A stretch of DNA of 64,000 bases from an uncultured Sphingomonas sp. (GCF_913774285.1 NZ_CAJYHX010000017.1:2873-66872); one strand, 5' to 3'; positions 3,141 to 34,742 are shown, counted from the stretch's first letter. Program-made: numbers and translations. Notes: generated by a model from the sequence alone, not told the origin.

Positions 3141-3324
3141 GATTATTCCTGATCCCCCAATTCGATGCGTTCGCCCGACCTTCGAACGATAGGAGGCGGC
3201 CTAGCTCTTTCTTTCAATGTGGCAAGTTAATCGCACGTTGGGACGCCAATTATTTTTCCCACTCGGCCGGTTAGCAACCTCATCTACTGGCAGCCGAACG
3301 AAAGCGGGTGACCGAGGGTATGGT

Positions 3325-4479
3325 TCAGCGCTTAGCGGCGGCGGCTCCCACCAAGGTTACTGGATTGATGATACCGGCATAATCCGGTCCGGCTGGATCG
3401 GGGATCTGCAAAGAGAAGCTGCCACCAAGCTCTTGTGCTGCAGGACCGGCAAGGAAACCAGCGAAGCGGCCTTGGCCCGCGGCGCCACTCAGTTGCGTAA
3501 GCGATGCGCCACCTGTTTGCGTCAAGGGGATGATTATGTCGTACGGCGCCGATTCGCCCGATGTCGCCTTGAGGGTGAGCGTGCCGGTGAACGTCTGCGC
3601 CACGAAGTCTACGGAAATCTGGATCCTTCCACTGATCGAATATTTTCGCGGATACACGGAGTCGTTTCGCGTCGCGAAGCCCGAGACGATACCAGTATAG
3701 GTCGATACGCCGGTGCGGGGCAGATCCGATACCGCTGTCCTCACCCCATATGCAAATAGACGACGATCATATAGGTCATAGGATCGCGGCTGTGAGAAGT
3801 TGACGGTGTACATGCCGAAGCTTGCATAGTCGAGTGCAAGCAGGTCATTGTCTGCGCCAGGTCTAAAGAGCTCAAGTTCCGCCTGAAAGGCACCCTCTTT
3901 GGGCTGTAGTCCGTCGGAACAACTGCGCTTGTACACGATGGTGTGGGCATTGGAGCGATTGGCCAGCACGTTCTCGGGACCGAACGAAATGCTCTCGTCG
4001 AGGTCGGAGAAAAGGGGATTGGACGCTACACGAAGGGTGTAGCGTTGGGTTGCAGCAGCGTAGCTGAAGGCCTGGGCCATCACCGGATCCGCGGACGTGA
4101 GATCATGCACGCCATCAACAGCATTGCGATACTGCATCATGGCGCTGGACGCGTAGAAGGTGCGGTCGAACATCGTGTCTGCTGGACACGTCCAGCGTAC
4201 CGGTGTCCTGGAGGGCGTTGGACTAGGTTCTGGCGTAGGCGTCGGTGTGGGCGTTGGGCTGGGTTGCGGTGTCGGCGTGGGCGTCGGGATTGGCGGCGTC
4301 GGCAGCGGCGAGGCTGTCGGGCTGGGTGCTGGCGTCGGGCTCGGCGGTGCGGGGGTCGGAGTCGGGGTCGGGGTCGGGCTGGGCAGGATCACCGTGCCGG
4401 CGCCGTTGCCGTTTGACTGGTTGCACCCCGCGAGGGCGAATAGAGACAGCGAAATCGCACTGACCGAACTATAACGCAT
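3325..4479 (-). CDS. Lipoprotein with Pro-Thr-rich stalk and C-terminal TbpB/HpuA-like beta-barrel (paralog 2)
   Basis: Start moved to [19 protein letters not shown] (lipobox LAGC). Shares [56 protein letters not shown] and the AAKR end with paralog 1. Confidence 0.75.
4210..4390. repeat. Degenerate hexamer tandem repeat encoding the Pro-Thr/Pro-Ser stalk of paralog 2
   Basis: GGCGTC/GGGGTC/GGGCTG units; translates as [18 protein letters not shown]... Confidence 0.85.
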
Positions 4480-19467: not shown

Positions 19468-20214
19468 TCAGGGCGCTCGCTGCTCGGCGAGCGCCTCGAT
19501 CACCCGCTCGTATAGCCAGGCCTTGTCGGCAGTGCCGGCGAAAACATGGCTGGCGGTATCAAACTGCTTGCGGCGCACGCGGGTGCCGGCGGCGGCGTAG
19601 GCCGGCTTGTGCAGGAATTCGGCGAAGTCCGCGGCGATCTTGTCGCGGGTGGCGAGCAGTACCGTCATCGGCACCTCCGCCGCGGTGAACGCGGCGGCGA
19701 GTTCGCTGCCGAGGTTGCGATGGGTTTCCGGCCGCCGTGTCGCGACTCTGCCGATCACCTGCCGCATCCAGCCGCGCGCCGCTTCTCCCTCCTCGGCTTC
19801 TTCCGGCGGGGGGAGGGGGGCGACGATAACGGGATTTGCGAGCAGCAGCGCGTCAATCCGCGCCTGGGCATGGAACAGCGCAAGCGCCGTCGCGCCGTCG
19901 CCATTGCCGAACGCGACCACGCGCCGCAGTTTCGCCTCGCGCCGGAAGATGCTTGCAGCCGCAACGATGTCCGGCGCGCTTTCCAGAAAGCCCTGGTTGC
20001 TGCCCGCCGAATCGCCGACGCCGCGGCGATCGAAGCGGAACACCGGATAGCCCGCCGCCGCGATGCGATGCGCCAGCTGCGACATGCTGCGATGCGGCCC
20101 GCTGCGAATTTCGTTGCCGTTCGACACGATCAGCAGCCCGGTAGCGCCCGACGCGCTGTCCAGCGTGCCGACCAGCATGTCGCCCAGGCAGGGGAAGCCG
20201 ATCAGGCTTCGCAC
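19468..20214 (-). CDS. Alpha/beta hydrolase 1, exosortase A system-associated (appears degenerate)
   Basis: GTG start at 20214. GNEIRSGPHRSMSQLAHRIAAAGYPVFRFDRRGVGDSAG; the nucleophile elbow reads FGNGDGA. Confidence 0.8.
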   Translation of the reverse strand: MRSLIGFPCLGDMLVGTLDSASGATGLLIVSNGNEIRSGPHRSMSQLAHRIAAAGYPVFRFDRRGVGDSAGSNQGFLESAPDIVAAASIFRREAKLRRVVAFGNGDGATALALFHAQARIDALLLANPVIVAPLPPPEEAEEGEAARGWMRQVIGRVATRRPETHRNLGSELAAAFTAAEVPMTVLLATRDKIAADFAEFLHKPAYAAAGTRVRRKQFDTASHVFAGTADKAWLYERVIEALAEQRAP

Positions 20215-20843
20215 ATGCGCACCCAGGCGGCGAGGTCGTCGGCAAGCAGCGTCGCGAGATCGAGGTCGTTGTCGGGCGTCGGCTCGCGCCACAGCGCGCG
20301 GCCGGGGACGAGGCGATCGGCCGGACGGGTGTCGCCCTCCAGCCGGAGCGTGCGGGCGGGCTCGACATGGCAGTCGGGCAGTTCCTCTAGGAACGTGTCG
20401 GGCAGGCGATGGCCACCATAACCGGGCGCGTCGCCGATGCGGTGGATGCGGCGGAGCGCGCGGAGCAGCGCGTCCCCGGGTTGCGGCGCGAAGTGCCAGC
20501 GGCGGCGGATGACCACGCTGCCGTCAAGCAGGGCGCCGCTGCGGATGGCCATGGAGTAGGCGCGGCCGCCGGCGGTGCGCGCTGCCGCCGCGAAGCCCGC
20601 GCGCAGATCGGAGATGGCGATGCGCTCGCTGGGGATCAGGCTCTCGCCGGTGCCGGGAAGCTCGGGCAGCACGCCGGCGATGCCGTGGTTCTCGGCGAGC
20701 GACCGGAGGATCGTCGCGGCGAACCCGCGCATCCGGTTCGCCTCTTCAAACAGCGGCAACGCCGCGATGACGACGGGGCCGCTGCCGGGACCGAAGCGCA
20801 CCATCGCTTCGCGGCCGCCTGCCCAGTCATAGGGTTCGATCAC
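20202..20843 (-). CDS. Hydrolase 2-like protein, exosortase A system-associated
   Basis: ALPLFEEANRMR, GVLPELPGTGES, AIRSGALLD; sits between the ACP and hydrolase 1 genes. Confidence 0.75.
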   Translation of the reverse strand: MIEPYDWAGGREAMVRFGPGSGPVVIAALPLFEEANRMRGFAATILRSLAENHGIAGVLPELPGTGESLIPSERIAISDLRAGFAAAARTAGGRAYSMAIRSGALLDGSVVIRRRWHFAPQPGDALLRALRRIHRIGDAPGYGGHRLPDTFLEELPDCHVEPARTLRLEGDTRPADRLVPGRALWREPTPDNDLDLATLLADDLAAWVRMCEA

Positions 20844-21097
20844 CCCAATACCTTTTGCGCGGCGAAGCGGGTGAGCGTGCCGAAGCTCTCCAGCATCTCG
20901 CCGTCGACTTCGTCGTCTTCGATCAGGATGCCTAGCCGGTCCTCGATCTCGGTCAGCACGCCGGCGACGGCGAGCGAATCGAGTTCGGGCAGGGCGCCGA
21001 ACAGCGGCGTGGTCTCGTCGAACGCGGCAACGCGATCGTCGCTCAACCCGAGCACGTCGCGCAGCACGCCGCGGACGGTGGTTTCGATGTCGAGCAT
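20840..21097 (-). CDS. Acyl carrier protein (exosortase A cluster type)
   Basis: 3' part of ORF 20840..22585: MLDIETTVRGVLRDVLGL...LFGALPELDSLAVAGVLTEIEDRLGILIEDDEV, with DSL phosphopantetheine Ser; 85 aa, acidic. Confidence 0.9.
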   Translation of the reverse strand: MLDIETTVRGVLRDVLGLSDDRVAAFDETTPLFGALPELDSLAVAGVLTEIEDRLGILIEDDEVDGEMLESFGTLTRFAAQKVLG

Positions 21098-21184
21098 GGC
21101 TTCAGGCCGCAATGGGGTTCCCCTGCAAGAAATTTGCGCTTCCGTAAGGCTTGGCGGCGGCGCTGCCAAGACTATGGGTGGTGC

Positions 21185-22672
21185 ATGATCGCGCTCGATC
21201 CTGCCCCGCATCTTATAGACGCGCTGCCGCTGCGTGGCGCGCCGGACGCCGTTGCTTTGGAAGACAAGGCAGGCACGCTGACCTATGCCGAACTGGAGGC
21301 GGCGGTGGGCAGCATGGCGCATGCCCTCGCCGCGCATGGCCTGCCCGCGGGCGAGCGGGTGGCGAGCTGGCTGCCGAAGACCCGCACCGCGTGCCTGCTG
21401 CCGCTGGCCGGTCCCCGCGCGGGACTCGTCCATGTGCCGATCAACCCTGCGCTCAAGCGCGCGCAGGTCGCGCACATCCTGGCGGACAGCGGGGCGCGGC
21501 TGCTGGTGACGCAGCAGGCGCGGCTGGCGGCGCTCGAGCCCGGCGACGTGCCCGCCGATTGCCTGATCGTCACCGAAGAGGAACTGGTCGGCACCGACGC
21601 CCTGCCGCTCGCGAGCGGCGAACCCGATGCGCTGGCGGCGATCCTCTACACGTCGGGGTCGACCGGGCGGCCCAAGGGCGTGATGCTCAGCCACGCCAAT
21701 CTGTGGCTCGGGGCGATCAGCGTCGCGCATTACCTGAAGCTCGCACCGGAGGACCGGGTGCTGGGCGTGCTGCCGCTGAGCTTCGACTATGGCCAGAACC
21801 AGCTTTTCTCGACCTGGGCGGCGGGCGCGCGGGTGGTGCCGCTCGACTATCTCACCGCGCGCGACGTGGTGAAGGCGGTCGGGCGGTTCGGCATCAACAC
21901 GCTGGCGGGGGTGCCGCCGCTCTGGGTGCAACTGCTCGAGGCGGAATGGCCGGAAGAGAACACGGCCTCGCTCAAGCGGCTGACCAATTCCGGCGGCGCG
22001 CTGACCCGGCCCCTGGTGCAGGGACTGCGGACGCGTTTCCCCGGCGCCGACCTCTATCCGATGTACGGCCTGACCGAAGCGTTCCGCTCGACCTATCTCG
22101 ATCCAGGACTGGTTGACAAGCATCCGGAATCCATCGGCCGCGCCATTCCCTTCGCCGAGATCCTTGTCGTCGATGCCGAGGGCCGTCGCGCGCAGCAGGG
22201 CGAACTCGTCCATGCCGGGCCGCTGGTCGCCAAAGGCTATTGGCGCGATCCCGAACGGACCGCGCTGCGCTTCCGCCCGGCACCGGCCTTCGCCGAGCGC
22301 CAGGGCATGGCGGTATGGTCCGGCGATACGGTGACGGAGGATGCCGAGGGGTTGCTGCGCTTCGTCGGCCGTGACGACGAGATGATCAAATCCTCGGGCA
22401 ACCGGATCAGCCCCACCGAGATCGAGGAGGCCGTGGTCGCTGGGGGCGAGACCAGCGAGGCGGTGGCGTTCGGCGTCCCCGACCCGCGTCTTGGCCAGGC
22501 AATCCTGGTCGTCGTACGCGGCGACGGCAGCCGTGAGGACGAACTGCGCGCGCGGCTGCGGCGGGAACTGCCGAGCTTCCAGCAACCGGCGCGCTATGTC
22601 TGGCGGGAAAGCCTGCCGCGCAACGCCAATGGCAAGCTCGATCGGTCCGGGCTGAAGACGGAGATCCTATGA
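21185..22672 (+). CDS. Acyl-CoA ligase (AMP-forming), exosortase A system-associated
   Basis: ILYTSGSTGRPKGVMLSH, YPMYGLTEAFRS, WSGD, GRDDEMIKSSGNRISPTEIEE, LPRNANGKLDR. Confidence 0.9.
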   Translation: MIALDPAPHLIDALPLRGAPDAVALEDKAGTLTYAELEAAVGSMAHALAAHGLPAGERVASWLPKTRTACLLPLAGPRAGLVHVPINPALKRAQVAHILADSGARLLVTQQARLAALEPGDVPADCLIVTEEELVGTDALPLASGEPDALAAILYTSGSTGRPKGVMLSHANLWLGAISVAHYLKLAPEDRVLGVLPLSFDYGQNQLFSTWAAGARVVPLDYLTARDVVKAVGRFGINTLAGVPPLWVQLLEAEWPEENTASLKRLTNSGGALTRPLVQGLRTRFPGADLYPMYGLTEAFRSTYLDPGLVDKHPESIGRAIPFAEILVVDAEGRRAQQGELVHAGPLVAKGYWRDPERTALRFRPAPAFAERQGMAVWSGDTVTEDAEGLLRFVGRDDEMIKSSGNRISPTEIEEAVVAGGETSEAVAFGVPDPRLGQAILVVVRGDGSREDELRARLRRELPSFQQPARYVWRESLPRNANGKLDRSGLKTEIL

Positions 22673-23880
22673 ACGCGAAGCCCACCGGACCCATTCCCGC
22701 CGACTATGCCGTGCAATCGGTGCTGCAGATCTCCGGCCGCAGCGCCCGCGACTGGGCGGAAGCGGGTACGCCGCTCTATCTGTACGACGCGAACGCAGTG
22801 CAGGCGCGGATCGCGCGGTTCCGCGCGGCGATGCCGGACCGGATCGCGCTGCACTATGCGATCAAGGCCAATCCCTTTCCGCCGCTGATCGCCGCCATCG
22901 CTCCCGAGGTCGACGGCATCGACGTCGCCTCGGCGGGCGAGATGGACAAGGCGCTGGCGGTGATGGACGCCTCGGCGATCAGCTTCGCCGGGCCGGGCAA
23001 GCGCGATGCGGAGCTGGAAGCGGCGATCCGCGTAGGGGTGACGCTCAACCTTGAATCCGAGGGCGAAGCCGATCGCGCGCTGGCGATCGGCGATCGGCTG
23101 GGCATCACGCCGCGGCTGGCGGTCCGCGTGAACCCGGACTTCGAGCTGCGCGGCTCCGGCATGAAGATGGGCGGCCGCGCTTCGCCCTTCGGGATCGACG
23201 CCGCGCAGGTGCCCGCGCTCGTTCGGCGGCTGGTGGCAGCCGGCGCCGACTGGCGGGGCTTCCATATCTATGCCGGCTCGCAGGCGCTGTCGGCCGAGGC
23301 GGTAATCGAGACCCAAGCCGCCACCATCGGCCTCGCCGCGCGGCTGGCGGACGAGGCGGGCGCGCTGCCGCCGCTGGTCAACCTCGGCGGCGGCTTCGGC
23401 ATCCCCTATTTCCCCGGCGACCTGCCGCTTGATGTCGAGGCGGTCGGCGCGGCGCTTGCCGGCGAACTGGACCGCCTAGACACGCACTATGCGATCGAGC
23501 TCGGCCGCTGGCTGGTCGGCGAGGCGGGGATCTATCTGGCGCGGGTGATCGACCGCAAGGAGAGCCAGGGCGAGACCTTCCTCGTCGTCGATGGCGGGCT
23601 CCACCACCATCTCGCCGCGACCGGCAATTTCGGTACCGTTGTGCGTCGCAACTATCCCGTCGCCGTCGCGCATCGGATGCAGGACGCGCCGGAGGAGGTG
23701 GTCACCGTGGTCGGCCCGCTCTGCACGCCGCTCGACCGGCTGGCGGATCGCGTGGCGCTGCCCCGTGCCGAGGTAGGCGACCTGATCGCGATCTTCGCCT
23801 CCGGCGCGTACGGCGCCAGCGCCAGCCCGCAGGCGTTCCTCGGCCACCCGCCGGTTCGCGAGCTTCTGGCAGGAGCCTGA
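22669..23880 (+). CDS. PLP-dependent decarboxylase (Orn/DAP/Arg family), exosortase A system-associated
   Basis: HYAIKANP (PLP Lys), SFAGPGK, FHIYAGSQ, NLGGGFG, IELGRWLV, GPLCTPLD, GAYG; ATGA overlap with the ligase. Confidence 0.9.
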   Translation: MNAKPTGPIPADYAVQSVLQISGRSARDWAEAGTPLYLYDANAVQARIARFRAAMPDRIALHYAIKANPFPPLIAAIAPEVDGIDVASAGEMDKALAVMDASAISFAGPGKRDAELEAAIRVGVTLNLESEGEADRALAIGDRLGITPRLAVRVNPDFELRGSGMKMGGRASPFGIDAAQVPALVRRLVAAGADWRGFHIYAGSQALSAEAVIETQAATIGLAARLADEAGALPPLVNLGGGFGIPYFPGDLPLDVEAVGAALAGELDRLDTHYAIELGRWLVGEAGIYLARVIDRKESQGETFLVVDGGLHHHLAATGNFGTVVRRNYPVAVAHRMQDAPEEVVTVVGPLCTPLDRLADRVALPRAEVGDLIAIFASGAYGASASPQAFLGHPPVRELLAGA

Positions 23881-23973
23881 CGCCTAACGCTAAATTTACG
23901 CGTCCTGCGCCATAGCTCGCCGTCCGGCACGGGCGCGCGACACGCCGCCTCGCTGCCGCTTGGAGGCACGGCA

Positions 23974-24615
23974 ATGGCGGTTTCGTTCGGGATCAAGGCG
24001 GCGGCGACGCTGGCGCTGATGGCGCAGCTATCGGCGTGCGGCAGCGGCGGACCGCGTCCCGAGCTGCCCGCCGCGGGCTTCGTCGGCGCCAGGGAAGCGC
24101 CCAGCGACGAATATGTCATCGGCCCGCTCGACCATCTCAGCATCTTCGTGTGGCGGAACCCGGAGATCTCGACCAAGGTCCAGGTGCGCCCCGATGGCCG
24201 CATCACCACGCCCCTGATCAACGACATGCCGGCGGTGGGCAAGACCCCCGCGATGCTCGCCGACGACCTGAAGCTGGCGCTCAGCGAATATATCAAGGAC
24301 CCGATCGTCTCGGTGATCGTCGAGAATTTCTCGGGGACGTTCAGCCAGCAGATCCGCGTGGTCGGCGCGACCGAGAAGCCTGCCTCGCTGCCGTACCGCG
24401 CCAACATGTCGATCCTCGACGCGATGATCGCGGTAGGCGGCCTCAACGAATTCGCTGCAGGTAACCGCGCGCGGCTGGTGCGCTACGATCCGCAGACCGG
24501 CAAGCAGCGCGAGTTCAAGCTCCGCCTCTCCGATCTCCTGAAGAACGGCGACACCTCCGCAAACGTCCGGCTGGAGCCGGGCGACGTGATCATCATCCCG
24601 CAGAGCATGTTCTGA
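23974..24615 (+). CDS. Polysaccharide export lipoprotein (Wza-like, XrtA/PEP-CTERM type)
   Basis: Lipobox LSA-C, EYVIGPLDHLSIFVWRNPE, VRPDGRITTPLI, GGLNEFA, LEPGDVIIIP. Confidence 0.92.
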   Translation: MAVSFGIKAAATLALMAQLSACGSGGPRPELPAAGFVGAREAPSDEYVIGPLDHLSIFVWRNPEISTKVQVRPDGRITTPLINDMPAVGKTPAMLADDLKLALSEYIKDPIVSVIVENFSGTFSQQIRVVGATEKPASLPYRANMSILDAMIAVGGLNEFAAGNRARLVRYDPQTGKQREFKLRLSDLLKNGDTSANVRLEPGDVIIIPQSMF

Positions 24616-26135
24616 TGGGAAGCCTGTTCGACGAGGTCCGCAGCGCGATCCACGCGGTGTGGATGCGCCGCACGCTCGCGCTGGCGATCGCCTGGGTGGT
24701 ATGCGTGGTCGGCTGGGTGGCGGTGTCGCGCATCCCGGACAGCTATGAGTCCAAGGCGCGCGTGCTCGTCGAGCTGCGCCAGGTGCTGCCGAACGATGGC
24801 GGCGTGGCGGCCGCGGGCCAGCAGCAGGACATCGACCGCATCCGCCAGACGCTCACCAGTTCGGTGAACCTCGAAAAGGTCGTCCGCGGCACCGATCTGG
24901 CGAAGACGATCACCAAGCCGGCGGATCTGGCCGCGCGCATTGCCGGGCTGCAAAAGGCGATCAAGCTCACCGCCCAGCAGGACAATCTGTTCGAGATCGC
25001 GGTGACCGGCGCCGATCCGGCGATCTGCCGCCAGGTCGTCGAGAAGCTGATCGCGCTGTTCCGCGACAACAAGCTCGCCGACAGCCGCGACGAGAGCAGC
25101 CAGTCGCTCGCCTTTCTCGACCAGCAACTCGCCGAGCGCCAGCAGGCGCTGCAGGCGGCGGAGACCAAGCGCGCCGAATTCCAGTCGCGCTTCCTCGGCA
25201 GCCTGCCGGGCACCGGCTCGCTCGACGACCGGATCGGCGCGGCGCAGCAGCAGCTCCAGCAGATCGAAAGCGATCTCGCGGCGGCGCAGAGCGGCCTGAG
25301 CGCCGTCAACGCGCAGATGGCGGGGACGCCGGCCAGCGTGGCGGGGCAGGGTGGCGGTCCGGTAGGAACCGGCCCGGCGCGCGCCCGGCTCGCGGACCTG
25401 CAGGCGCAGCTTTCCGATGCCCGCGCGCGTGGCTTCACCGAGGCGCATCCGGACGTGGTCGCACTCAAGCGGCAGATTGCAGGGGCTCAGGCCGCCGCGG
25501 CGCGCGAGCCGAGCGGTGTTGGGGGCGGAGGCAGCTTCGCCAATCCGCTCTACCTCAGCCTGCGTTCGATGCAGGCCGACAAGGCCGCGCAGGTCGCAGC
25601 CCTCAGCCAACGCCGCGCGCAGATCCAGGGCGATCTCGCGGCGCTCAACGCCAAGCTGACCCAGGCGCCGCAGGCGGCCTCCGAGCAGGGGCAGATCGAC
25701 CGCGACTATCAGGTGCTCAAGGACCAGTATGCCAAGCTGCTCGCCGATCGCGAACAGCTGCGGATCAGCAGCCAGGCGCAGAGCCAGACCGATGCGGTGA
25801 AGTTCAGCGTCATCGACCCGCCGACCCAGCCGCGCAGCCCGAGTTCGCCCAACCGGCCGATGCTCCTCACCGCCGTGCTGGTCGCGGGGCTGGGCGCGGG
25901 CGTGGCGGCGGCATTCCTGCTCTCCAAACTGCGGACCACCTTCGACACTGCGACACGGCTCGAGCGCGCCAGCGGGATGCCGGTGATCGGCTCGATCGGC
26001 GAGGTGGTCACGCCCCGGCAGCGGGCGCGTCGCCGCAAGCAGCTCCAGCACTTCCTCGGCGGCGTAGCAGGCTTGGGCGTCGCCTATGCCGCGATCCTGC
26101 TGGTCGGCATGCTTCACCATGCTGCGGGGGCCTGA
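24615..26135 (+). CDS. Polysaccharide chain-length determinant (Wzc N-terminal/Wzz-like)
   Basis: N-terminal TM with PDSYESKARV, long coiled coils, FTEAHPDVV, C-terminal FSVIDPPTQP..PNRP plus TM. Confidence 0.9.
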   Translation: MGSLFDEVRSAIHAVWMRRTLALAIAWVVCVVGWVAVSRIPDSYESKARVLVELRQVLPNDGGVAAAGQQQDIDRIRQTLTSSVNLEKVVRGTDLAKTITKPADLAARIAGLQKAIKLTAQQDNLFEIAVTGADPAICRQVVEKLIALFRDNKLADSRDESSQSLAFLDQQLAERQQALQAAETKRAEFQSRFLGSLPGTGSLDDRIGAAQQQLQQIESDLAAAQSGLSAVNAQMAGTPASVAGQGGGPVGTGPARARLADLQAQLSDARARGFTEAHPDVVALKRQIAGAQAAAAREPSGVGGGGSFANPLYLSLRSMQADKAAQVAALSQRRAQIQGDLAALNAKLTQAPQAASEQGQIDRDYQVLKDQYAKLLADREQLRISSQAQSQTDAVKFSVIDPPTQPRSPSSPNRPMLLTAVLVAGLGAGVAAAFLLSKLRTTFDTATRLERASGMPVIGSIGEVVTPRQRARRRKQLQHFLGGVAGLGVAYAAILLVGMLHHAAGA

Positions 26136-26138
26136 GCG

Positions 26139-26993
26139 ATGAACGAACACAGCCCCAAGCGCTTCACCGGCTCGTTGATCCAGCGCGCGATCGCGATGAT
26201 GCCGGCACTGCCAGCGGAGGAGGCGCCCGCCAAGTCGCAGTCGGCACCACCCGTGCAGGATCGCCCGATGGTGCCGATCGACCGCAACCGTTTGGCCGCG
26301 GCCGGCATGCTGGTGCCCGGAGGCCCGATCACCCCGCTCGCCGAGGAGTTCCGCATGGTGAAGCGGCAGCTGCTGCTCACCGCGCGCGGCGTCGCCGGCG
26401 TCGATGCCGATCGCGCGCGGATGATCCTGGTCTGCTCGGCCCAGCCCGACGAAGGCAAAACCTTCTGCGCGATCAATCTCGCGCTCTCGATGGCGGCCGA
26501 GAAGGATGTCGAGATCCTTCTGGTCGACGCCGATTTCGCCAAGCCCGACGTCTCCAAGCGGCTCGGCATGGGCGAGGGGCCGGGGCTGCTCGATGCGCTC
26601 GATGGCCAGATCGATGTCGAGGCCTGCATCGTCGATACCGACGTGCCGCAGCTCGCGATCCTGCCCGCCGGCACCCGTAGCGTGAGCGATACCGAGTTGC
26701 TCGCGAGCGACGGTGCGCGGGCGATGCTCGATCGTCTGGCGGCGGCCAATCCGCGCCGCATCGTGATCTTCGATTCGCCGCCGGCGCTCGCGGCATCCCC
26801 GGCCTCGGTGCTGGCGCTGCATGTCGGCCAGACGATGATGGTGGTCCGCGCCGACCGCACCAGCGAGGAGGACCTGCGCGCCGCGGTCGCTGCGCTCGAT
26901 GGGTGCGAGCATATCCAGCTCGTCCTCAACGCGGTGTCATTCCAGCCTTCGGGCCGTCGTTTCGGCAGCTATTACGCGCAGGCGGGCCGGTGA
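26139..26993 (+). CDS. Tyrosine autokinase-like P-loop protein (split Wzc C-terminal domain)
   Basis: AEEFRMVKR, SAQPDEGKTF, LLVDADFAKP, VIFDSPP, C-terminal FGSYY. Confidence 0.88.
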   Translation: MNEHSPKRFTGSLIQRAIAMMPALPAEEAPAKSQSAPPVQDRPMVPIDRNRLAAAGMLVPGGPITPLAEEFRMVKRQLLLTARGVAGVDADRARMILVCSAQPDEGKTFCAINLALSMAAEKDVEILLVDADFAKPDVSKRLGMGEGPGLLDALDGQIDVEACIVDTDVPQLAILPAGTRSVSDTELLASDGARAMLDRLAAANPRRIVIFDSPPALAASPASVLALHVGQTMMVVRADRTSEEDLRAAVAALDGCEHIQLVLNAVSFQPSGRRFGSYYAQAGR

Positions 26994-28576
26994 TCCGTGG
27001 CGCGATCGTGCTGGCCGTCTGCGCCGCCGCGATCGTGCCCGCGGCCGCCCAGCGGCGCGCGACCGTCACCCCCTATATTGAGGTGAGCCAGGTCGCCACC
27101 GCCGAACTCAACGGCGGGGAGACGCTGACCTACTCGCAGCTCGGTGCCGGGCTCGACGGCAGCATCCGTACGCGTCGGGTGCAGTTGCAGGTGAGCTACC
27201 AGTATCAGCACCGCTTCACCGAGAAGGGCAGCCTGCAATCGGGCGACAGTCACAATGGCCTCGCCCAGGCGCGCATCACCGCCGCCCGCGGGCTGACGCT
27301 GGAGGCCGGTGCCGTCGCCACCCGTACCCGCACCGATGCGCGCGGCGATGCGCTGACCGGCAACGCCGCCAACGCGCGCAACCTGAGCCAGCTCTATTCG
27401 GGCACTATCGGTCCCAAGCTCGACACCCATGCCGGGCCGCTGTTCGTGCAGGGCGCCTATCGCTTCGGCTTTACCAAGGTCGACGACGGTACTGCGGCCG
27501 GCGTTTCCGCGACGCTGCCGCAGGTCGATCGCTTCGACCATTCCACCTCGCACGCAGTGAATGCCAGCATCGGCGCAAAGCCCGGCGCCGTCCTACCGAT
27601 CGGGCTCAGCGTCACCGGCGGGCTGGTGCGCGAAAATGCCAGCCAGCTCGACCAGCATTTTGCCAGCAGTTCGGGGCGCGGCGACGCGATCGCGCCGATC
27701 AGCCGCACCGTCGCGCTGGTCGGCGGCGCGGGGTACGAGCAGATCACCGTCCGTCAGCGCGATCCGCTGCTCGGCACCGACGGCAGGCCGGTGGTCGACG
27801 GGGCGGGGCGCTATGTCACCGATCCGGCATCGCCCGTGCGGATCGCCTATGATTTTGATGGCATGTTCTGGGACGGCGGTGTGCTCTGGCGTCCGAGCCG
27901 GCGGACCGCGCTCGAGGTACGGATCGGCCGCCGCTACGGGGCGATGCGCTATACCGGCAGCTTCACCTTCCAGCGGAACAACGGCAGCGGCATCCAGGTC
28001 GCGGTGTACGATACGGTCGAGACCTATGGCCAACAGGTCGGCGGCAGCCTCGCGGCGCTGCCGGTAGGCTTCGTCACCACCGCCGATCCGTTCGGTGTGC
28101 AGGCCGGCGCCTGCATCTACGGCACCAGCGGCGCGGCGGCGGGCGGCTGCATCGCCGGCGCTTTCTCCTCGGCGGCGACCGCAGCCTATCGCGGCCGCGG
28201 GATGACCGCCAATGCGGTGTGGAGCCGCGGCACGACGCGGCTCGGCGTGGGCGGCGGCTTTGCCCGACGTGACTTCCTCACCCCCATTGCCGCGAACGCA
28301 ACCGGCGGCAGCTGGGACGAGAGCTTCTATGCCCAGGCCTTTGCCGCGCTCGCCGCTGGCCGGGACGGAACGGTCGGGCTGAACCTGCTCGCCAGCTATT
28401 ATGACGGCGACATCCCCGGCAGCACCGCGGTGTTCGGCTGGGGCGCCAATACCGCCTATACCCGCCGCCTGGGGCATCTGAGCCTCACCGCAACGGCGGG
28501 CATCTACGGCTCGATGCGCGACGGCCCCGACCAGGCATCGGCACAGGCGCTGATCGGAGCGCGCTATGGTTTTTGA
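26990..28576 (+). CDS. Outer-membrane beta-barrel protein of the PEP-CTERM polysaccharide locus (TIGR03016-like)
   Basis: GTG start overlapping the upstream stop, signal peptide, VTPYIEVSQV, alternating beta-strand pattern, C-terminal ARYGF. Confidence 0.75.
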   Translation: MIRGAIVLAVCAAAIVPAAAQRRATVTPYIEVSQVATAELNGGETLTYSQLGAGLDGSIRTRRVQLQVSYQYQHRFTEKGSLQSGDSHNGLAQARITAARGLTLEAGAVATRTRTDARGDALTGNAANARNLSQLYSGTIGPKLDTHAGPLFVQGAYRFGFTKVDDGTAAGVSATLPQVDRFDHSTSHAVNASIGAKPGAVLPIGLSVTGGLVRENASQLDQHFASSSGRGDAIAPISRTVALVGGAGYEQITVRQRDPLLGTDGRPVVDGAGRYVTDPASPVRIAYDFDGMFWDGGVLWRPSRRTALEVRIGRRYGAMRYTGSFTFQRNNGSGIQVAVYDTVETYGQQVGGSLAALPVGFVTTADPFGVQAGACIYGTSGAAAGGCIAGAFSSAATAAYRGRGMTANAVWSRGTTRLGVGGGFARRDFLTPIAANATGGSWDESFYAQAFAALAAGRDGTVGLNLLASYYDGDIPGSTAVFGWGANTAYTRRLGHLSLTATAGIYGSMRDGPDQASAQALIGARYGF

Positions 28577-28588
28577 GAGACTGCACGC

Positions 28589-29653
28589 ATGATGGACGAT
28601 CATTACGGGCTGCGCGGCCGGCCGTTCCAGCTGACCCCTGATCCGCGCTTCTGGTTCGATACCGCCACGCACGGCAAGGCGATGGCCTATCTCGGCTATG
28701 GCCTCAGCCAAGGGGAGGGCTTCGTCGTCATCACCGGCGATCCGGGCGCGGGCAAGACCACGCTGCTCGGCCATCTGCTGGCAGAGCTGGACGGCGAACG
28801 GCTCAACGTGATCAAGATCGTTTCCACCCATTTGCGCGCCGACGACATGCTGCGGCTGGTAGCGCAGGGGCTCGGTCTGCCGGGGGATGATCTCTCTAAG
28901 GCCGCGCTGCTGCTGGCGATCGAGCGCGGGCTCCACGAGGTCGCCCGCGCCGGGCGCCGCACGCTGCTGGTGGTGGACGAGGCGCAGGCACTGCCGGGCG
29001 AGAGCCTGGACGAGCTGCGCATGCTCTCCAACTTCCAGGCCGGCGGCTATCCGCTGCTCCAGATCTTCCTGCTCGGCCAGCCCGAGTTTCGGCTGGTGCT
29101 CCAGCAGCCCGCCTTCGAGCAGCTGCGCCAGCGGGTGATCGCGATGCACCACCTCGCCCCGATGGAGGTGGAGGAGGTCGAGGCCTATCTGATGCACCGG
29201 CTGATGCTGGTCGGCTGGAGCGGCCGCCCGCGCTTCACCGCCGATGCGCTGGCGGCGATGCACCGCTGGTCGGGCGGCATCCCGCGCCGGCTCAACCAGC
29301 TGGCGAGCCGGGTGCTGATGTATGGCGCGGTCGAGCAGATCGAGAATTTCGGCGCGCCCGATGTCGCCGCGGTGATCGAGGATATCGAGCAGGAGGACGT
29401 GATCGAACCGGCCGCCGAGCCGACGGGCGAATCCGCCCCGCTGCGCCCGAGCCGCGTTGCCGCGCTGCGCGCGGTGCCGGAGGGCTCGGCAGAGACTCGG
29501 GCGCTCGAGCGCCGCGTCGCCGAGCTGGAGGCGCAGGTCGCCTCGCAGTCCGATGCGCTGCGCCGCGTGCTCTCGCTGCTGGTTGACTGGGTGGAGAAGG
29601 ATGAGGGCCGCAGCGGCATCGATCTCGACGCCCTGCGCGGTAGTGCTGCCTGA
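28589..29653 (+). CDS. ExeA-like AAA ATPase, XrtA/PEP-CTERM-associated
   Basis: YGLRGRPFQLTPDPRFWF, ITGDPGAGKTT, LVVDEAQ, LLGQPE, SGGIPRRLN. Confidence 0.92.
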   Translation: MMDDHYGLRGRPFQLTPDPRFWFDTATHGKAMAYLGYGLSQGEGFVVITGDPGAGKTTLLGHLLAELDGERLNVIKIVSTHLRADDMLRLVAQGLGLPGDDLSKAALLLAIERGLHEVARAGRRTLLVVDEAQALPGESLDELRMLSNFQAGGYPLLQIFLLGQPEFRLVLQQPAFEQLRQRVIAMHHLAPMEVEEVEAYLMHRLMLVGWSGRPRFTADALAAMHRWSGGIPRRLNQLASRVLMYGAVEQIENFGAPDVAAVIEDIEQEDVIEPAAEPTGESAPLRPSRVAALRAVPEGSAETRALERRVAELEAQVASQSDALRRVLSLLVDWVEKDEGRSGIDLDALRGSAA

Positions 29654-29656
29654 GCC

Positions 29657-30502
29657 ATGGGCGTGCGCAACGGCCTGTCGGTCGACGTCGAGGACTGGTT
29701 CCAGGTCGGCGCCTTCGAGACCACGATCGCGCGCGGTGACTGGGACGGGCTGGAGCGGCGCGTCGAGGCCAATACCGATCGCGTGCTGGCGCTGTTCGCG
29801 GAAGCGGGGGTGCTGGGCACCTTCTTCACGCTCGGCTGGGTGGCGGAGCGTCATCCGAAGCTGATTCGCCGCATCGCCGAGGCCGGGCACGAAGTCGCCA
29901 GCCATGGCTGGGACCATGCCCGCGTCTTCACGCTGACCCCCGACCAGTTCCGCGAGGATCTCGCCCGCGCCCGCGCCGCACTGGAGGATGCCGCGGGCGT
30001 CGCGGTGAACGGCTATCGCGCGCCGAGCTTCTCGATCGACCGGCGCACCCCCTGGGCGCATGCGGTGCTGGCCGAGGCGGACTATTGCTACTCGTCGAGC
30101 ATCGCGCCGATCGCGCATGACCATTATGGCTGGCCCGATGCGCCGCGCGCGCCGTTCCGGCCGCTGCCCGACGCGGGGCTGATCGAGCTGCCGATCACGA
30201 TCGCGCGGGTGCTGGGGCGCGAGGTCACCGCAGGCGGCGGCTTCTTCCGGCTGCTGCCGCAGGGCGTCACCGACCGCGCGATCCGCGCCGCCAACGGGAG
30301 AGGCGAGGCGGCGATGTTCTATTTCCATCCCTGGGAGATCGACCCCGGCCAGCCGCGGGTCCGCGGGGCGCCGCTCAAGTCGCGCCTGCGCCATTGTGCC
30401 CGACTGGGTGCGATGCAGGGCAAGCTGCGGACCCTGCTCGGGACGCACGACTGGGGCCGGGTGGATGCCATCGCCGCGCAGGCGGCGGAGCGGCTGGCGT
30501 GA
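29657..30502 (+). CDS. Polysaccharide deacetylase, XrtA system type
   Basis: LSVDVEDWFQV, TFFTLGWVAE, HEVASHG, GYRAPSFS, FYFHPWEIDP. Confidence 0.92.
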   Translation: MGVRNGLSVDVEDWFQVGAFETTIARGDWDGLERRVEANTDRVLALFAEAGVLGTFFTLGWVAERHPKLIRRIAEAGHEVASHGWDHARVFTLTPDQFREDLARARAALEDAAGVAVNGYRAPSFSIDRRTPWAHAVLAEADYCYSSSIAPIAHDHYGWPDAPRAPFRPLPDAGLIELPITIARVLGREVTAGGGFFRLLPQGVTDRAIRAANGRGEAAMFYFHPWEIDPGQPRVRGAPLKSRLRHCARLGAMQGKLRTLLGTHDWGRVDAIAAQAAERLA

Positions 30503-31551
30503 GCCTGTCCGTCCGCACGGCCGACCTGCACGATGCGGCCGAGTGGGGGCGGCTCTCCGCCTGGGTCGACGCGCAGGCCGATGCCACGCCGTTTCACCTG
30601 CCGGAATGGAGCATGGCGGTGGCGAAGGGATGCCGCCAGCGCAGCCACTATCTGGTGGCGGAGGGCGCGGGCGGGCGGATCGTCGGGGTGTTGCCGCTGA
30701 CGGCCGTCGTCTCGTCGCTGTTCGGCCGGGCACTGGTCTCGACCGGTTTCGGCGTCGGCGGCGGCATTCTCGCCGAGCAGGGGTTTGCGGTCGCCGCGCT
30801 CGGGCAGGCCGCCTGGAGCCTCGCCACGCGCCTGCGCTGCCCGAGCCTCGACCTGCGCGGCGGCCCCTGTCCGGGGGAGGACTGGGCGCGCGACGACACG
30901 ACCTATCTGGGCTTCGTCCGCCGGCTAGCGGCCGATGACGAAGCCGAACTGCTCGCCGTGCCGCGCAAGCAGCGCGCCGAACTGCGCAAGGCGCTCGCCG
31001 CCGATCTGGCGGTGGAGGTTGCAGCCGACCGGGCCGCCCGGCGCGCGCACTACACCGTCTATGCCGAAAGCGTCCGCAATCTCGGCACCCCGGTCTTTCC
31101 GTCGGCGCTGTTCGCGGCGGTGCTGGAGGCGTTCGGGGCGGAGGCGGACATCCTCACCGTCCGGCACCAGCGCCGCGCGGTGGCGAGCGTGCTCAGCCTC
31201 TACTGGCGCGGCACCGTCTATCCCTATTGGGGCGGCGGGACCGAGGCGGCGCGGGGGCTGCGCGCCAATGACCGGATGTATTTCGCGCTGATGGCCCATG
31301 CCCGCGCGCGCGGCTGTTCGCGGTTCGACTTCGGCCGCTCCAAGGCCGGCACCGGCGCGGCGGCGTTCAAGAAGAACTGGGGCTTCGCGCCCGAGTCCCT
31401 AGTCTATTTCTCGCGGCATGCCGAGGGTGCCGCACCGCGCAGCATCAACCCGCTCGATCCGAAGTTCCGGTTGCAGATCGCGGCATGGAAGCGGCTGCCG
31501 CTCTGGGCGGCCAACCGCATCGGGCCGCTGCTCTCGCGCGGGCTCGGCTGA
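30499..31551 (+). CDS. FemAB-family protein, XrtA/PEP-CTERM-associated
   Basis: GTG start at 30499. TPFHLPEW, LFGRALVS, YAESVRNLGTPVF, PYWGGG, ANDRMYFALM, FDFGRSK, FKKNWGF. Confidence 0.9.
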   Translation: MSLSVRTADLHDAAEWGRLSAWVDAQADATPFHLPEWSMAVAKGCRQRSHYLVAEGAGGRIVGVLPLTAVVSSLFGRALVSTGFGVGGGILAEQGFAVAALGQAAWSLATRLRCPSLDLRGGPCPGEDWARDDTTYLGFVRRLAADDEAELLAVPRKQRAELRKALAADLAVEVAADRAARRAHYTVYAESVRNLGTPVFPSALFAAVLEAFGAEADILTVRHQRRAVASVLSLYWRGTVYPYWGGGTEAARGLRANDRMYFALMAHARARGCSRFDFGRSKAGTGAAAFKKNWGFAPESLVYFSRHAEGAAPRSINPLDPKFRLQIAAWKRLPLWAANRIGPLLSRGLG

Positions 31552-32816
31552 TGGGCGACATCCTGTTCCTCGCCCACCGCATGCCCTTTCCGCCGGATCG
31601 TGGCGACAAGATCCGGGCCTATCACCTGCTGCGCCATCTCGCCCGCGACCACCGCATCCATCTCGTCGCCTTCGCCGACGATCCCGAGGACCTGCAGCAC
31701 CAGGACGGCCTTGCGGCTCATACTGCGACACGCACGATCGTCTGGCGGAAGGCGCCGACCGTCTGGACGGGCGCGCGCGCGTTGCTGCAGCGCCGGCCGG
31801 TATCGCTGGTCGCCTTTGCCGACCCGGCAGTACGACGTGCGGTGAATGCGCTCCTGGAAGCGCAGCCGATCGACACGATCTTCCTCTTCTCCAGCCAGAT
31901 GGCACAGTATCTGCCGCCCGCTCCCAAGCAGCGGGTGATCATGGACTTTGTCGACATGGATTCGGCCAAGTTCGCCGCCTATGCAAAGGGCGGGCGTGGG
32001 GCCATGGCCTGGGTGCACAAGCGCGAGGCGTCGCTGCTGCTCGCTCATGAGCGCCGCGTCGCTGGCCTATCCGATGCCAGCCTGTTCGTGAGCGACGCCG
32101 AGGCGACGCTGTTCCGGGAGCGCACCAACGCCCCCCGCGTACATGCGATCGAGAACGGCATCGACACGGTGTTCTACGATCCCGCCGGCCGCTTCGAGCC
32201 GCTCGGCGGGGAGGGGCCGTTGCTCGTCTTCACCGGGCAGATGGATTACCGGCCGAACATCGAGGCGATCCGCTGGTTCGCCGAAAAGGTGTTCCCCCGC
32301 GTCCGACGCGCCCATCCCGACGCGCGGCTCGCGGTCGTCGGCCGCGCGCCGACCCCGGCGGTCCAGGCGCTGGCGGAGCGACCCGGCGTTCTCGTCACCG
32401 GCAGCGTTCCCGATGTGCGCGACTGGCTCGCCGCCGCCGCGTTGGTGGTGGCGCCGCTGCAACTGGCGAGGGGCATTCAGAACAAGGTGCTCGAAGGCAT
32501 GGCGATGGCGCGGGCGGTGGTTGCCTCGCCGGCCGCGGCCGAGGGGGTCGACCATGCCGGCACGCTCTGTGTCGCCGAGGGCGCAGATGCGTTCGGCGGC
32601 GCCGTGCTGCGCCTGCTCGATGACCCCGATACCGCCGCGGCACTCGGCGCCGCTGCCCGCGCGCGCGTGATCGCCCGCTACAGCTGGGACGCGCGGCTGG
32701 CACCGCTCGACGCGCTCCTCGAGGCGCCTGCAGGCCACCTCCATCAGCGGGGTGGCGCAGATGCCGATCGCTTGGTACCGGGCCGCTACGATGCGGATCA
32801 TGAACGGCGACGATAG
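31551..32816 (+). CDS. GT4 glycosyltransferase (TIGR03087-like) with an aberrant C-terminal extension
   Basis: ILFLAHRMPFPPDRGDKIR, DFVDMDSAKF, FTGQMDYRPN, APLQLARGIQNKVLEGMAM, YSWDARLAPLDALL, then ~30 atypical residues. Confidence 0.9.
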   Translation: MGDILFLAHRMPFPPDRGDKIRAYHLLRHLARDHRIHLVAFADDPEDLQHQDGLAAHTATRTIVWRKAPTVWTGARALLQRRPVSLVAFADPAVRRAVNALLEAQPIDTIFLFSSQMAQYLPPAPKQRVIMDFVDMDSAKFAAYAKGGRGAMAWVHKREASLLLAHERRVAGLSDASLFVSDAEATLFRERTNAPRVHAIENGIDTVFYDPAGRFEPLGGEGPLLVFTGQMDYRPNIEAIRWFAEKVFPRVRRAHPDARLAVVGRAPTPAVQALAERPGVLVTGSVPDVRDWLAAAALVVAPLQLARGIQNKVLEGMAMARAVVASPAAAEGVDHAGTLCVAEGADAFGGAVLRLLDDPDTAAALGAAARARVIARYSWDARLAPLDALLEAPAGHLHQRGGADADRLVPGRYDADHERRR

Positions 32817-32850
32817 GGGACGGATAGGCGACCGCGAGGGCATGCGCTGA
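32761..32850 (+). pseudogene. Probable deletion scar / remnant at the usual xrtA (exosortase A) position
   Basis: 29-codon mini-ORF MPIAWYRAATMRIMNGDDRGRIGDREGMR* whose TGA overlaps the amidotransferase ATG (TGATG). Identity as an xrtA remnant is inferred from synteny only. Confidence 0.35.
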
Positions 32851-34742
32851 TGTGCGGCATTGCCGGCCTCTTCTATCCCGGGCTCCCCAAGCCGATCGAC
32901 CCCGCCCGCATCGTCGCGATGAGTGATGCCCAGGCGCACCGCGGACCCGACGGCTCGGGCGTGTGGTGCGTGGCGGGGGTCGGGCTCGGCCATCGCCGGC
33001 TGGCGATCATCGACCTCGAAGGCGGCGTCCAGCCGATGGCGCTGCCAGACCAGAGCCTCGCCGTCACCTTCAACGGCGAGATCTACAATTTCCGCGAGGT
33101 CCGCGCCGAGCTGGAGGCGCTGGGCGCCCGCTTCGTCACCGACAGCGACACCGAGGTGCTGCTTCACGGCTGGCGCGCCTGGGGGCCGGACCTGCTCGCC
33201 CGGCTGAACGGCATGTTCGCCTTTGCACTCTACGACGCGCCCGGCCAGAGCCTGTTCCTCGCCCGCGACCGCTTCGGGGTGAAGCCGCTCCATTATGCCG
33301 AACTGGCCGACGGCGCGGTCGCCTTCGCCTCGGAGCTGAAGGGCCTGCTTGCGCATCCGCTGCTCCGCCGCGCCGCCGATTTGCGCGCGGTCGAGGACTA
33401 TCTGGCGCTCGGCTATGTGCCCGACGACGCCAGCATCGTCGCGGGCGTGCACAAGCTGCCGGCGGGGCATTTCCTGCTGCTCCAGCGTGGCCGCCCGGCG
33501 CCGCAGCCGGTGCGCTGGTGGGATATCGACTTCACCCGCCGCGCCACCGGCCGCACGCGTGACCTCAAGGCCGAGTTGATCGAGCGGATGCGCACCGCCG
33601 TCCGCTCGCGGATGATCGCCGACGTGCCGCTGGGCGCGTTCTTGTCGGGCGGTGTCGACAGCTCGGCGGTCGTCGCGCTGATGGCCGAGCGCAGCAAGGC
33701 AGCGGTGAAGACGTGCACGATCGGCTTCGACGAAGCCGGGCTCGACGAGACCGCCCATGCGGCGAAGGTTGCGGCGCGCTTCGCCACCAGCCATCGCACC
33801 CGCACCGTGGGGGCGGAGGATTACGGGCTGATCGACACGCTGGTCGCCGCCTTCGATGAGCCCTTCGCCGATGCCTCGGCACTGCCGACCTATCGCGTCT
33901 GCCAACTCGCCCGCGAGAGCGTGACCGTCGCCCTTTCCGGCGACGGGGCTGATGAGGCGCTGGCCGGATATCGCCGCCACCGCTTCTTCGCCGTCGAGGA
34001 GCGGGTGCGCGGCCTCCTCCTGCCGGACGTGCGGGCGCGGCTCTTCGGGCGGCTGGGGACGCTCTATCCCAAGGCGGATTGGGCGCCGCGGCCGTTCCGC
34101 GCCAAGACGACCCTGCTCGCGCTCGCCGACGATGGGGCGGAGGCCTATGCCAAGGCGGTGGGCGTCACCACGCCGACGCTCCGCAACCAGCTCTACAGCG
34201 ACACCGCGCGTGCGGCGCTCGATGGCTATCGCGCCGAGACGCGCTATGTGGAGACGATGCGGCACGCGCCCGCGCGCGATGCGCTCGATCGCGCGCAATA
34301 TGCCGATATCCGCCACTGGTTGCCGGGCGACATTCTCACCAAGGTTGATCGCACCAGCATGGCCGTGGGCCTGGAGGCACGCGAGCCGCTGCTCGATCAC
34401 CGCCTCGTCGAGTTCGAGGCGAGCCTGCCGCCGTCGCTCCGCCTTCGCGGTGGGCAGGGCAAGTGGCTGATGAAGAAGGCGCTGGAGCCCTGGCTGCCGC
34501 GCGAGATCCTCTATCGACCCAAGATGGGCTTCGTCACCCCGATCAGCGCCTGGTTCCGCCACGCGCTGGCCGAGGAGGCGGCGGCGCTCGCCCGTTCGCC
34601 GCTGCTGCTCCAGAGCGGCTGGTTCGAGCCGCGGACGATCGCCCGGCTGGCCGAGGACCACCGCGCCGGCCGCGCCGAGCACGGCCGCACGCTGTGGCAG
34701 CTGGTGATGCTGGAACGCAGCCTCGCCAGGCTGTTCGGGTAG
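32850..34742 (+). CDS. Asparagine synthase-family amidotransferase, XrtA/PEP-CTERM-associated
   Basis: MCGIAG N-terminal Cys, HRGPDG, GHRRLAIID, FNGEIYNF, FLSGGVDSS, LSGDGADE, LEAREPLLDH, RPKMGF. Confidence 0.93.
   Translation: MCGIAGLFYPGLPKPIDPARIVAMSDAQAHRGPDGSGVWCVAGVGLGHRRLAIIDLEGGVQPMALPDQSLAVTFNGEIYNFREVRAELEALGARFVTDSDTEVLLHGWRAWGPDLLARLNGMFAFALYDAPGQSLFLARDRFGVKPLHYAELADGAVAFASELKGLLAHPLLRRAADLRAVEDYLALGYVPDDASIVAGVHKLPAGHFLLLQRGRPAPQPVRWWDIDFTRRATGRTRDLKAELIERMRTAVRSRMIADVPLGAFLSGGVDSSAVVALMAERSKAAVKTCTIGFDEAGLDETAHAAKVAARFATSHRTRTVGAEDYGLIDTLVAAFDEPFADASALPTYRVCQLARESVTVALSGDGADEALAGYRRHRFFAVEERVRGLLLPDVRARLFGRLGTLYPKADWAPRPFRAKTTLLALADDGAEAYAKAVGVTTPTLRNQLYSDTARAALDGYRAETRYVETMRHAPARDALDRAQYADIRHWLPGDILTKVDRTSMAVGLEAREPLLDHRLVEFEASLPPSLRLRGGQGKWLMKKALEPWLPREILYRPKMGFVTPISAWFRHALAEEAAALARSPLLLQSGWFEPRTIARLAEDHRAGRAEHGRTLWQLVMLERSLARLFG

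Follow-up and report, generated by a model that had tools for sequence, protein, structure and literature searches.

The PEP-CTERM/exosortase A systems of extracellular polysaccharide (EPS) loci were reportedly defined by computational means by Haft and co-workers, as a set of protein families (TIGRFAMs TIGR03006-TIGR03109). Since families of these loci bear names of the type "XrtA/PEP-CTERM system-associated", dependence on the exosortase (XrtA) is implied. The subject of this article is a locus of this kind in 64,000 nucleotides (nt) of DNA from an uncultured Sphingomonas sp. (GCF_913774285.1 NZ_CAJYHX010000017.1:2873-66872), a stretch that is hereafter called the window. The exosortase A-associated polysaccharide locus is complete at window positions 19468-34742, save the exosortase. 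The gene encoding the latter, a fusion of xrtA and epsI in relatives, was very probably removed by an internal in-frame deletion that left a scar flanked by the glycosyltransferase (GT) of family TIGR03087 and the XrtA/PEP-CTERM system amidotransferase (AMT). A literature search on exosortase loss in Sphingomonas found no paper.

Compared with the Haft-type systems, the marker set of the locus is nearly complete, with most families scoring above the trusted cut-offs and TIGR03018, TIGR03015 and TIGR03100 slightly below them, whereas XrtA, its EpsI partner and the PEP-CTERM cargo are missing from both the locus and the window. By its accessory genes the locus belongs to the XrtA-type EPS loci; it lacks the XrtA that defines them and is best described as a derivative without exosortase whose scar can be dated. 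A separation of polysaccharide synthesis from PEP-CTERM protein function, as proposed here, has been described in the floc-forming bacterium Aquincola tertiaricarbonis RN12, in which EPS is made but released in soluble form when the PEP-CTERM protein PepA is not expressed (PMC9850573). There, a betaproteobacterium whose exosortase is intact carries a regulatory mutation (rpoN1), whereas the present case would be a natural and fixed exosortase deletion, known from sequence.

The features of the GT-AMT junction are given below, with Sphingomonas trueperi strain 1075 (locus L003; AMT 96% and GT 86-87% identical to those of the window) as the related genome for comparison.

31551..32729, plus strand: TIGR03087 GT, conserved part, residues 1-393 (454 bits, profile positions 1-397 of 397)
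32725..32745, plus strand: loss of 1 nt compared with S. trueperi (position approximate), removing gcATGA (alignment A1, column 94)
32730..32816, plus strand: read-through tail of the GT, 28 codons, EAPAGHLHQRGGADADRLVPGRYDADHERRR followed by a stop, past the end of the TIGR03087 profile and not conserved
32733..32849, plus strand: probable scar from the deletion of fused xrtA-epsI, ~115 nt left of ~1.53 kilobases (kb)
32752..32790, plus strand: putative 5' xrtA remnant, ..VAQMPIAWYRAAT (MSGRTAGVARRRSAWYRPAT in S. trueperi), matching the XrtA cytoplasmic N-terminus up to W-x-R-H before the first transmembrane segment
32761..32850, plus strand: open reading frame (ORF) of 29 codons (mini-ORF), from ATG 32761 to TGA 32848-32850, in the frame of the xrtA remnant and probably no functional gene
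32824..32850, plus strand: putative 3' xrtA-epsI remnant, IGDREGMR and stop (LADRSAGVR and stop in relatives), holding the AMT Shine-Dalgarno (SD) sequence GAGGG (32836-32840) and the TGATG overlap
32850..34742, plus strand: XrtA/PEP-CTERM system AMT, last gene of the operon (TIGR03108, 896 bits)

The GT ORF has its likely start (MGDILF) at 31551 and its stop at 32814-32816, now 33 nt short of the AMT. The match to the full-length TIGR03087 profile ends 28 residues before this stop, which agrees with the ~30 atypical GT residues described in the initial annotation; the S. trueperi GT, by contrast, ends in ...LDALLAGSA. The mini-ORF proposed from the sequence is also present as described, its TGA overlapping the AMT ATG at 32850 (ctgATG), and an alternative start at GTG 32752 would give 32 codons. 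The stretch GGGGTGG (32749-32755), 5 nt upstream of the mini-ORF ATG, had been taken as SD-like. The sequence is there, but it is conserved in S. trueperi within the remnant frame and looks more like left-over 5' coding sequence of xrtA than a Shine-Dalgarno site. No promoter-like or terminator-like site was found at the junction, Rfam gave no match anywhere in the window and nothing stands out in the RNA folding of the junction (z = -0.4). Small contigs that cross GT, scar and AMT in two presumed RNA runs (32651-32880 and 32736-32905) hint at co-transcription of the three.

The same slot was compared in relatives by means of an AMT-based scan of one genome per species together with metagenomes of the Joint Genome Institute (JGI), which yielded 160 loci. 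In most sphingomonad loci with both genes in view, the interval between the conserved GT end and the AMT start measures 1535-1601 nt; it is ~1040-1090 nt in four loci, where XrtA comes without the EpsI part, and 37-119 nt in the window and in loci L001, L002 and L003. An XrtA homolog ends at the AMT start in 42 loci from at least six sphingomonad families, and the intervening ORF of two relatives matched both TIGR03109 (326 and 333 bits, cut-off 208) and the EpsI domain TIGR02914 (93-96 bits), so that the gene order given in the initial annotation (GT, xrtA with EpsI, AMT) proved correct. The fused XrtA-EpsI of relatives comprises 504-537 residues. Its start overlaps the GT stop as gcATGA or gcGTGA in all 14 relatives checked, and its stop overlaps the AMT start as ctgATG in seven of 15, the other stops lying 2-65 nt upstream. 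The sphingomonad exceptions to this arrangement are the window, two Logan contigs with an identical AMT, S. trueperi strain 1075 and the metagenomic contig L088.

The XrtA-EpsI loci of Sphingosinithalassobacter portus (L027:4401-5936), Sphingomonas immobilis (L005) and S. ginsenosidimutans (L006) resemble the window in the order ATPase, deacetylase, FemAB, GT and AMT, the AMT being last and 74-78% identical to that of the window. Where these loci encode the 504-537-residue XrtA-EpsI protein between GT and AMT, the window keeps ~115 nt. Relatives with an AMT identity between 78% and 96% were sought to sharpen the breakpoints, and none was present in the metagenome collection scanned. The S. portus locus also has a small PEP-CTERM gene (TIGR02595) shortly downstream, which the window does not. 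This is a 97-residue ORF on the minus strand (L027:8589-8882), ~700 nt downstream of the AMT, with a PEP-CTERM domain (..VPEPGTLGLLGGGIVAVALARRARRRKS; TIGR02595 25 bits, cut-off 16), and it is the only cargo-like gene adjoining any sphingomonad locus scanned.

An assembly collapse or mis-join that hides a real xrtA, a possibility raised in the initial annotation, has a practically negligible probability and is contradicted by several independent assemblies. The junction is identical in the two Logan assemblies, on the contigs whose AMT equals that of the window; its words occur in 20 public runs, and it is spanned without gaps by contigs from at least four independent runs, X1 (6.9 kb, depth 51, no differences), X5, X6 (2.7 kb) and X20. 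The independently assembled genome of S. trueperi has a homologous junction. The runs are low-depth host-associated samples, of which X20 and X11 are mixtures that include an xrtA-positive sphingomonad; the organisms named for them (A, B and C) are probably hosts and not isolates, because the RNA libraries are single-cell, poly-A and RNA immunoprecipitation (RIP-seq) libraries. On the reference segment L005:5148-7128, X20 gave both a deleted-junction contig (545 nt, depth 9.8) and an intact xrtA-AMT contig (2486 nt, depth 18), two sphingomonads being present in this one host-associated sample.

The short junction could in principle be the ancestral state, with xrtA-epsI inserted in the other sphingomonads, and GT adjoins AMT in a few distant loci too, such as Marinobacterium L051. 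The maximum-likelihood tree of the AMT demands the opposite polarity. It groups the window with S. trueperi (100/100) as sister to the XrtA-positive S. portus (100/99), and all three fall inside a well-supported clade of nine entries, seven of them XrtA-positive; since the window and S. trueperi nest inside XrtA-positive sphingomonads, the short junction is derived. XrtA occupies this slot in the 42 loci mentioned above, and the spacer itself keeps the xrtA start overlap, the N-terminal W-x-R motif and the C-terminal ..DR..G.R and stop with TGATG. An ancestral short junction, which had been named as a finding that would overturn the proposed deletion, is thus extremely improbable.

Contig L088 (Ga0068862_100000031) lies in a different clade of the AMT tree, so that the label "no XrtA" needs two changes and the short junction arose at least twice. 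As in the window, AMT directly follows GT; the 8.3 kb seen contain no XrtA, and the 115-nt spacer (L088:3085-3201) likewise ends in gctgATG. Unlike that of the window, this spacer is non-coding, carries a hairpin-forming inverted repeat (ccggggtcc...ggaccccgg) and has no recognizable xrtA start overlap. In this lineage xrtA was lost or relocated independently.

The clearest trace of the lost gene is found in S. trueperi, where a 39-codon ORF (MSGRTAGVARRRSAWYRPATMRRMDSNNRVGIGSREGLR and stop) runs from ggcATGAgc at the GT stop to ctgATG at the AMT start. Its N-terminal part resembles the cytoplasmic N-termini of XrtA, for example MTVAVPAAKFAQPSRSAWHRH in L084, and toward the C-terminus it is similar to the conserved ending LADR(S/A)AG(V/I/M)R and stop. 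In anchored similarity tests, for which in-frame coding segments from the same genome served as the null, the last 24-30 nt of the 3' end gave p = 0.003-0.006 for the window and 0.006-0.02 for S. trueperi at the nucleotide level, and the S. trueperi remnant gave p ~0.01-0.03 over its first 16-20 codons, the signal fading beyond. The history that best accounts for these features begins with an ancestor of the window organism and S. trueperi in which GT (TIGR03087), xrtA/epsI and AMT (TIGR03108) followed each other with the overlaps ATGA and TGATG. An internal in-frame deletion then very probably took ~470 of ~510 codons (~1.4 kb), including all transmembrane segments, the catalytic core and the EpsI domain, and left both ends of xrtA-epsI: the first 16-20 codons and the last 8-9 codons, plus a dozen codons of unclear origin. 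In the lineage of the window, the later loss of a single base abolished both the GT stop and the start of the remnant.

The last step can be followed in the alignment, as the window is one base shorter than S. trueperi near 32732. This loss removed ATGA, and consequently the GT stop and the remnant ATG are gone and the GT reads 28 codons into the scar. S. trueperi has CGG in place of the ATG at 32761, which is therefore not ancestral. Over positions 32300-33400, a 95%-identical strain in run X6 differs from the window by 52 substitutions and not in length (no gaps), so that the 1-nt loss is older than the split from that strain. The initial annotation had further proposed that translational coupling was preserved; this holds at the level of retained sequence signals, the SD GAGGG and TGATG.

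All comparisons of selection were made between the window and S. trueperi. The Jukes-Cantor distance of the scar is 0.48, close to the synonymous divergence (dS) of 0.35-0.46 in the flanking genes, and in the last 18 nt before the AMT ATG, which include GAGGG 9 nt upstream of this codon, the distance is 0.12. The scar evolves neutrally except for these last 18 nt, which carry the ribosome-binding site of the AMT. The remnant frame is open and free of indels, with a ratio of non-synonymous to synonymous substitution (dN/dS) of 0.6-0.8 and 56% of its residues identical, and because of these two values the mini-ORF peptide is regarded as not conserved.

A remaining function of this ORF, either as a peptide of 29-39 residues or as a translated leader that couples the AMT to upstream ribosomes, was weighed against these data. 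In spite of ~30% nucleotide divergence, both species keep its 32 codons open and a stop that overlaps the AMT start, and both share GTG 32752 with the GGGG before it. However, real genes show dN/dS values of 0.05-0.16, the starts differ between the two species (the S. trueperi ATG that overlaps the GT stop is lost in the window), and an open frame of 39 codons at 67% GC has a chance of ~0.4 as estimated from base composition. The AMT moreover owns a conserved SD and the peptide has no family match, all of which makes a functional ORF very improbable. In annotation, neither the 28-residue GT tail nor the mini-ORF should be treated as a functional feature.

The absence of exosortase and cargo from the window, as claimed at the outset, was borne out by dedicated searches. 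A hidden Markov model (HMM) built from nine sphingomonad XrtA-EpsI proteins was run against six-frame translations of the 64-kb window and of the 13.9 kb S. trueperi locus and gave only matches with E > 3; the model also spans EpsI (TIGR02914 / PF11984), for which neither sequence had a match. A regular-expression scan that recovers the true PEP-CTERM protein of S. portus found no PEP-CTERM-like tail (TIGR02595 cargo) on any ORF of the window. Among ~45 window ORFs scanned with NCBIfam there was no match to PrsK, PrsR or PrsT, the genes of which are not always linked to the locus.

It was considered whether xrtA, with or without epsI, had moved to another place in the genome and still functions there, in which case the locus would be part of a normal XrtA/PEP-CTERM system. 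Other proteobacteria do not always carry XrtA immediately before the AMT, and every "XrtA-associated" gene here is still under purifying selection, as in a complete system. Against relocation stand the lack of any exosortase in the 64-kb window or in the 13.9 kb of S. trueperi and the lack of a PEP-CTERM gene or prsK/R/T in the window. When contigs were placed on the S. portus GT-xrtA-AMT segment at 80% likeness, those of the organism matched pieces of GT and AMT and skipped xrtA (joint 4151->6295). Such mapping catches local pieces only, because the orthologs are 70-78% identical at the nucleotide level. With two reference genes, and with GT and AMT recovered as similarly diverged positive controls, no xrtA-like contigs were present in X6, X9 and X16. 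They occurred in X1 (depth 3-6 each and 22 together, versus 51 for the organism) and at low depth in X11, both of which are mixed samples. No protein of the S. trueperi group appeared among the organism-named entries of the best 120 exosortase A homologs, where many Sphingomonas species are represented. These results hint that there is no close copy of xrtA elsewhere in the genome, and a relocated exosortase is considered unlikely.

Some observations weigh against a deletion of xrtA-epsI and a loss of its function. The scar resembles the XrtA termini to a modest degree. When terminal peptides were scanned against the window at the protein level without anchoring, the scar segments gave p = 0.05-0.5 and many better chance matches occurred in this GC-rich DNA; the XrtA-EpsI HMM, too, misses the scar (E = 6, in the wrong region of the profile); profile methods miss the remnants because these are too short. 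Exact breakpoints cannot be placed, since the nearest xrtA-bearing relative is only ~70-78% identical in nucleotides. As to the genome at large, the HMM search covered the window and the S. trueperi locus, and the read-based test sees only copies with at least 80% local nucleotide identity to the two reference genes, in host-associated runs with a depth of 4-8x. The suggested similarity of the remnant to the XrtA termini is upheld by the anchored tests (p 0.003-0.03) and not by the HMM or the window-wide scan. Synteny, phylogeny and residual sequence nevertheless favor the proposal of the initial annotation that an internal deletion joined the two ends of xrtA. Position, both retained overlaps, reading frame and the similarities taken together make an internal in-frame deletion of xrtA-epsI highly probable.

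The rest of the locus consists of a divergent minus-strand arm (19468..21100, delimited from the ORF list and NCBIfam matches) and the plus-strand genes that lead to the GT.

19468-20292, minus strand: TIGR03100-like hydrolase 1 (NCBIfam 156.7 bits, slightly below the cut-off of 168)
20202-20843, minus strand: alpha/beta-hydrolase-like ORF, the second hydrolase (no family match)
20840-21100, minus strand: acyl-carrier-like (ACP-like) ORF (weak AsbD match alone)
21134-22672, plus strand: exosortase A system-associated acyl-CoA ligase (TIGR03098, 626 bits, above cut-off)
22669-23880, plus strand: pyridoxal phosphate-dependent decarboxylase (TIGR03099, 547 bits, above cut-off)
23974..31551, plus strand: seven full-length ORFs, namely export protein (TIGR03027), chain-length determinant (TIGR03007), tyrosine autokinase (TIGR03018), outer-membrane protein-like (OMP-like) ORF, ATPase (TIGR03015), deacetylase (TIGR03006) and FemAB-family protein (TIGR03019)

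All ten XrtA-associated marker families (TIGR03027, TIGR03007, TIGR03018, TIGR03015, TIGR03006, TIGR03019, TIGR03087, TIGR03108, TIGR03098 and TIGR03099) are present. Eight exceed their curated cut-offs, and TIGR03018 and TIGR03015 are full-length and slightly below. Outside the locus the window holds housekeeping genes, including trxB, secA, cysH, sulfite reductase, cysG, moaC, trpC, trpE, tpiA and dnaB. The locus genes in view have dN/dS values of 0.05-0.16 and no stops, while cysH, sulfite reductase and other neighbors range from 0.02 to 0.15. In the part of the locus covered by S. trueperi, the OMP-like ORF, ATPase, deacetylase and FemAB gave 0.06-0.13, the GT 0.16 (87% identity) and the AMT 0.054 (96% identity). 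As these values fall in the housekeeping range, the machinery has been maintained since the deletion.

The exosortase would thus have been deleted long ago, with a synonymous divergence of ~0.3-0.45 accumulated since, and the other genes have been selected as strongly as their housekeeping neighbors. Continued selection on the remaining genes makes it probable that the cell still produces the polysaccharide, and its synthesis, tailoring and export would be expected to work without the exosortase. PEP-CTERM sorting was likely lost as a whole and, by analogy with A. tertiaricarbonis, the polymer would be released instead of anchored by protein. For the S. trueperi group (host- or plant-associated, ~20 public runs) to have fully lost exosortase A, EpsI and PEP-CTERM cargo, with the EPS machinery autonomous and the polymer switched from anchored to released, and for the same to have happened independently in the L088 lineage, the chances appear evenly balanced. 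Provided that the rest of the genome contains no exosortase, PEP-CTERM sorting and polysaccharide production are separable modules, and strains of this group would be natural knock-outs in which the role of XrtA/EpsI could be addressed, for example in terms of cell-bound versus released polymer. Losing a gene is in itself ordinary; the value of the case would lie in these natural knock-outs of a poorly understood system. It would also exemplify how a gene in the interior of a closely coupled operon can be excised by an in-frame deletion, with the last gene spared any polar damage: as the ribosome-binding site of the AMT and the stop/start overlap were kept, a polar effect was presumably avoided.

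Conservation relative to S. trueperi varies along the locus. FemAB and GT (window 30502-32729) are 90% and 87% identical, with dS ~0.46, and ATPase, deacetylase and AMT are better conserved (95-97%, dS 0.22-0.35). The lower conservation of FemAB and GT could be due to local variation in rate or to past recombination around the deletion. The OMP-like ORF (557 residues, 26903-28576) has a weak and partial match to TIGR03016 (30.6 bits, profile positions 34-166 of 477) and is 93% identical in S. trueperi, with a dN/dS of 0.13. In the divergent arm, the 213-residue ORF at 20202-20843 (minus strand), which has no NCBIfam match, occupies the expected place of "hydrolase 2" (TIGR03101) and overlaps the hydrolase 1 ORF by ~90 nt. 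Far upstream of the locus, between argJ and secA, positions 3001-4000 hold no ORF with high G+C at third codon positions (GC3) and have a G+C content of 58%, compared with 65-69% around them.

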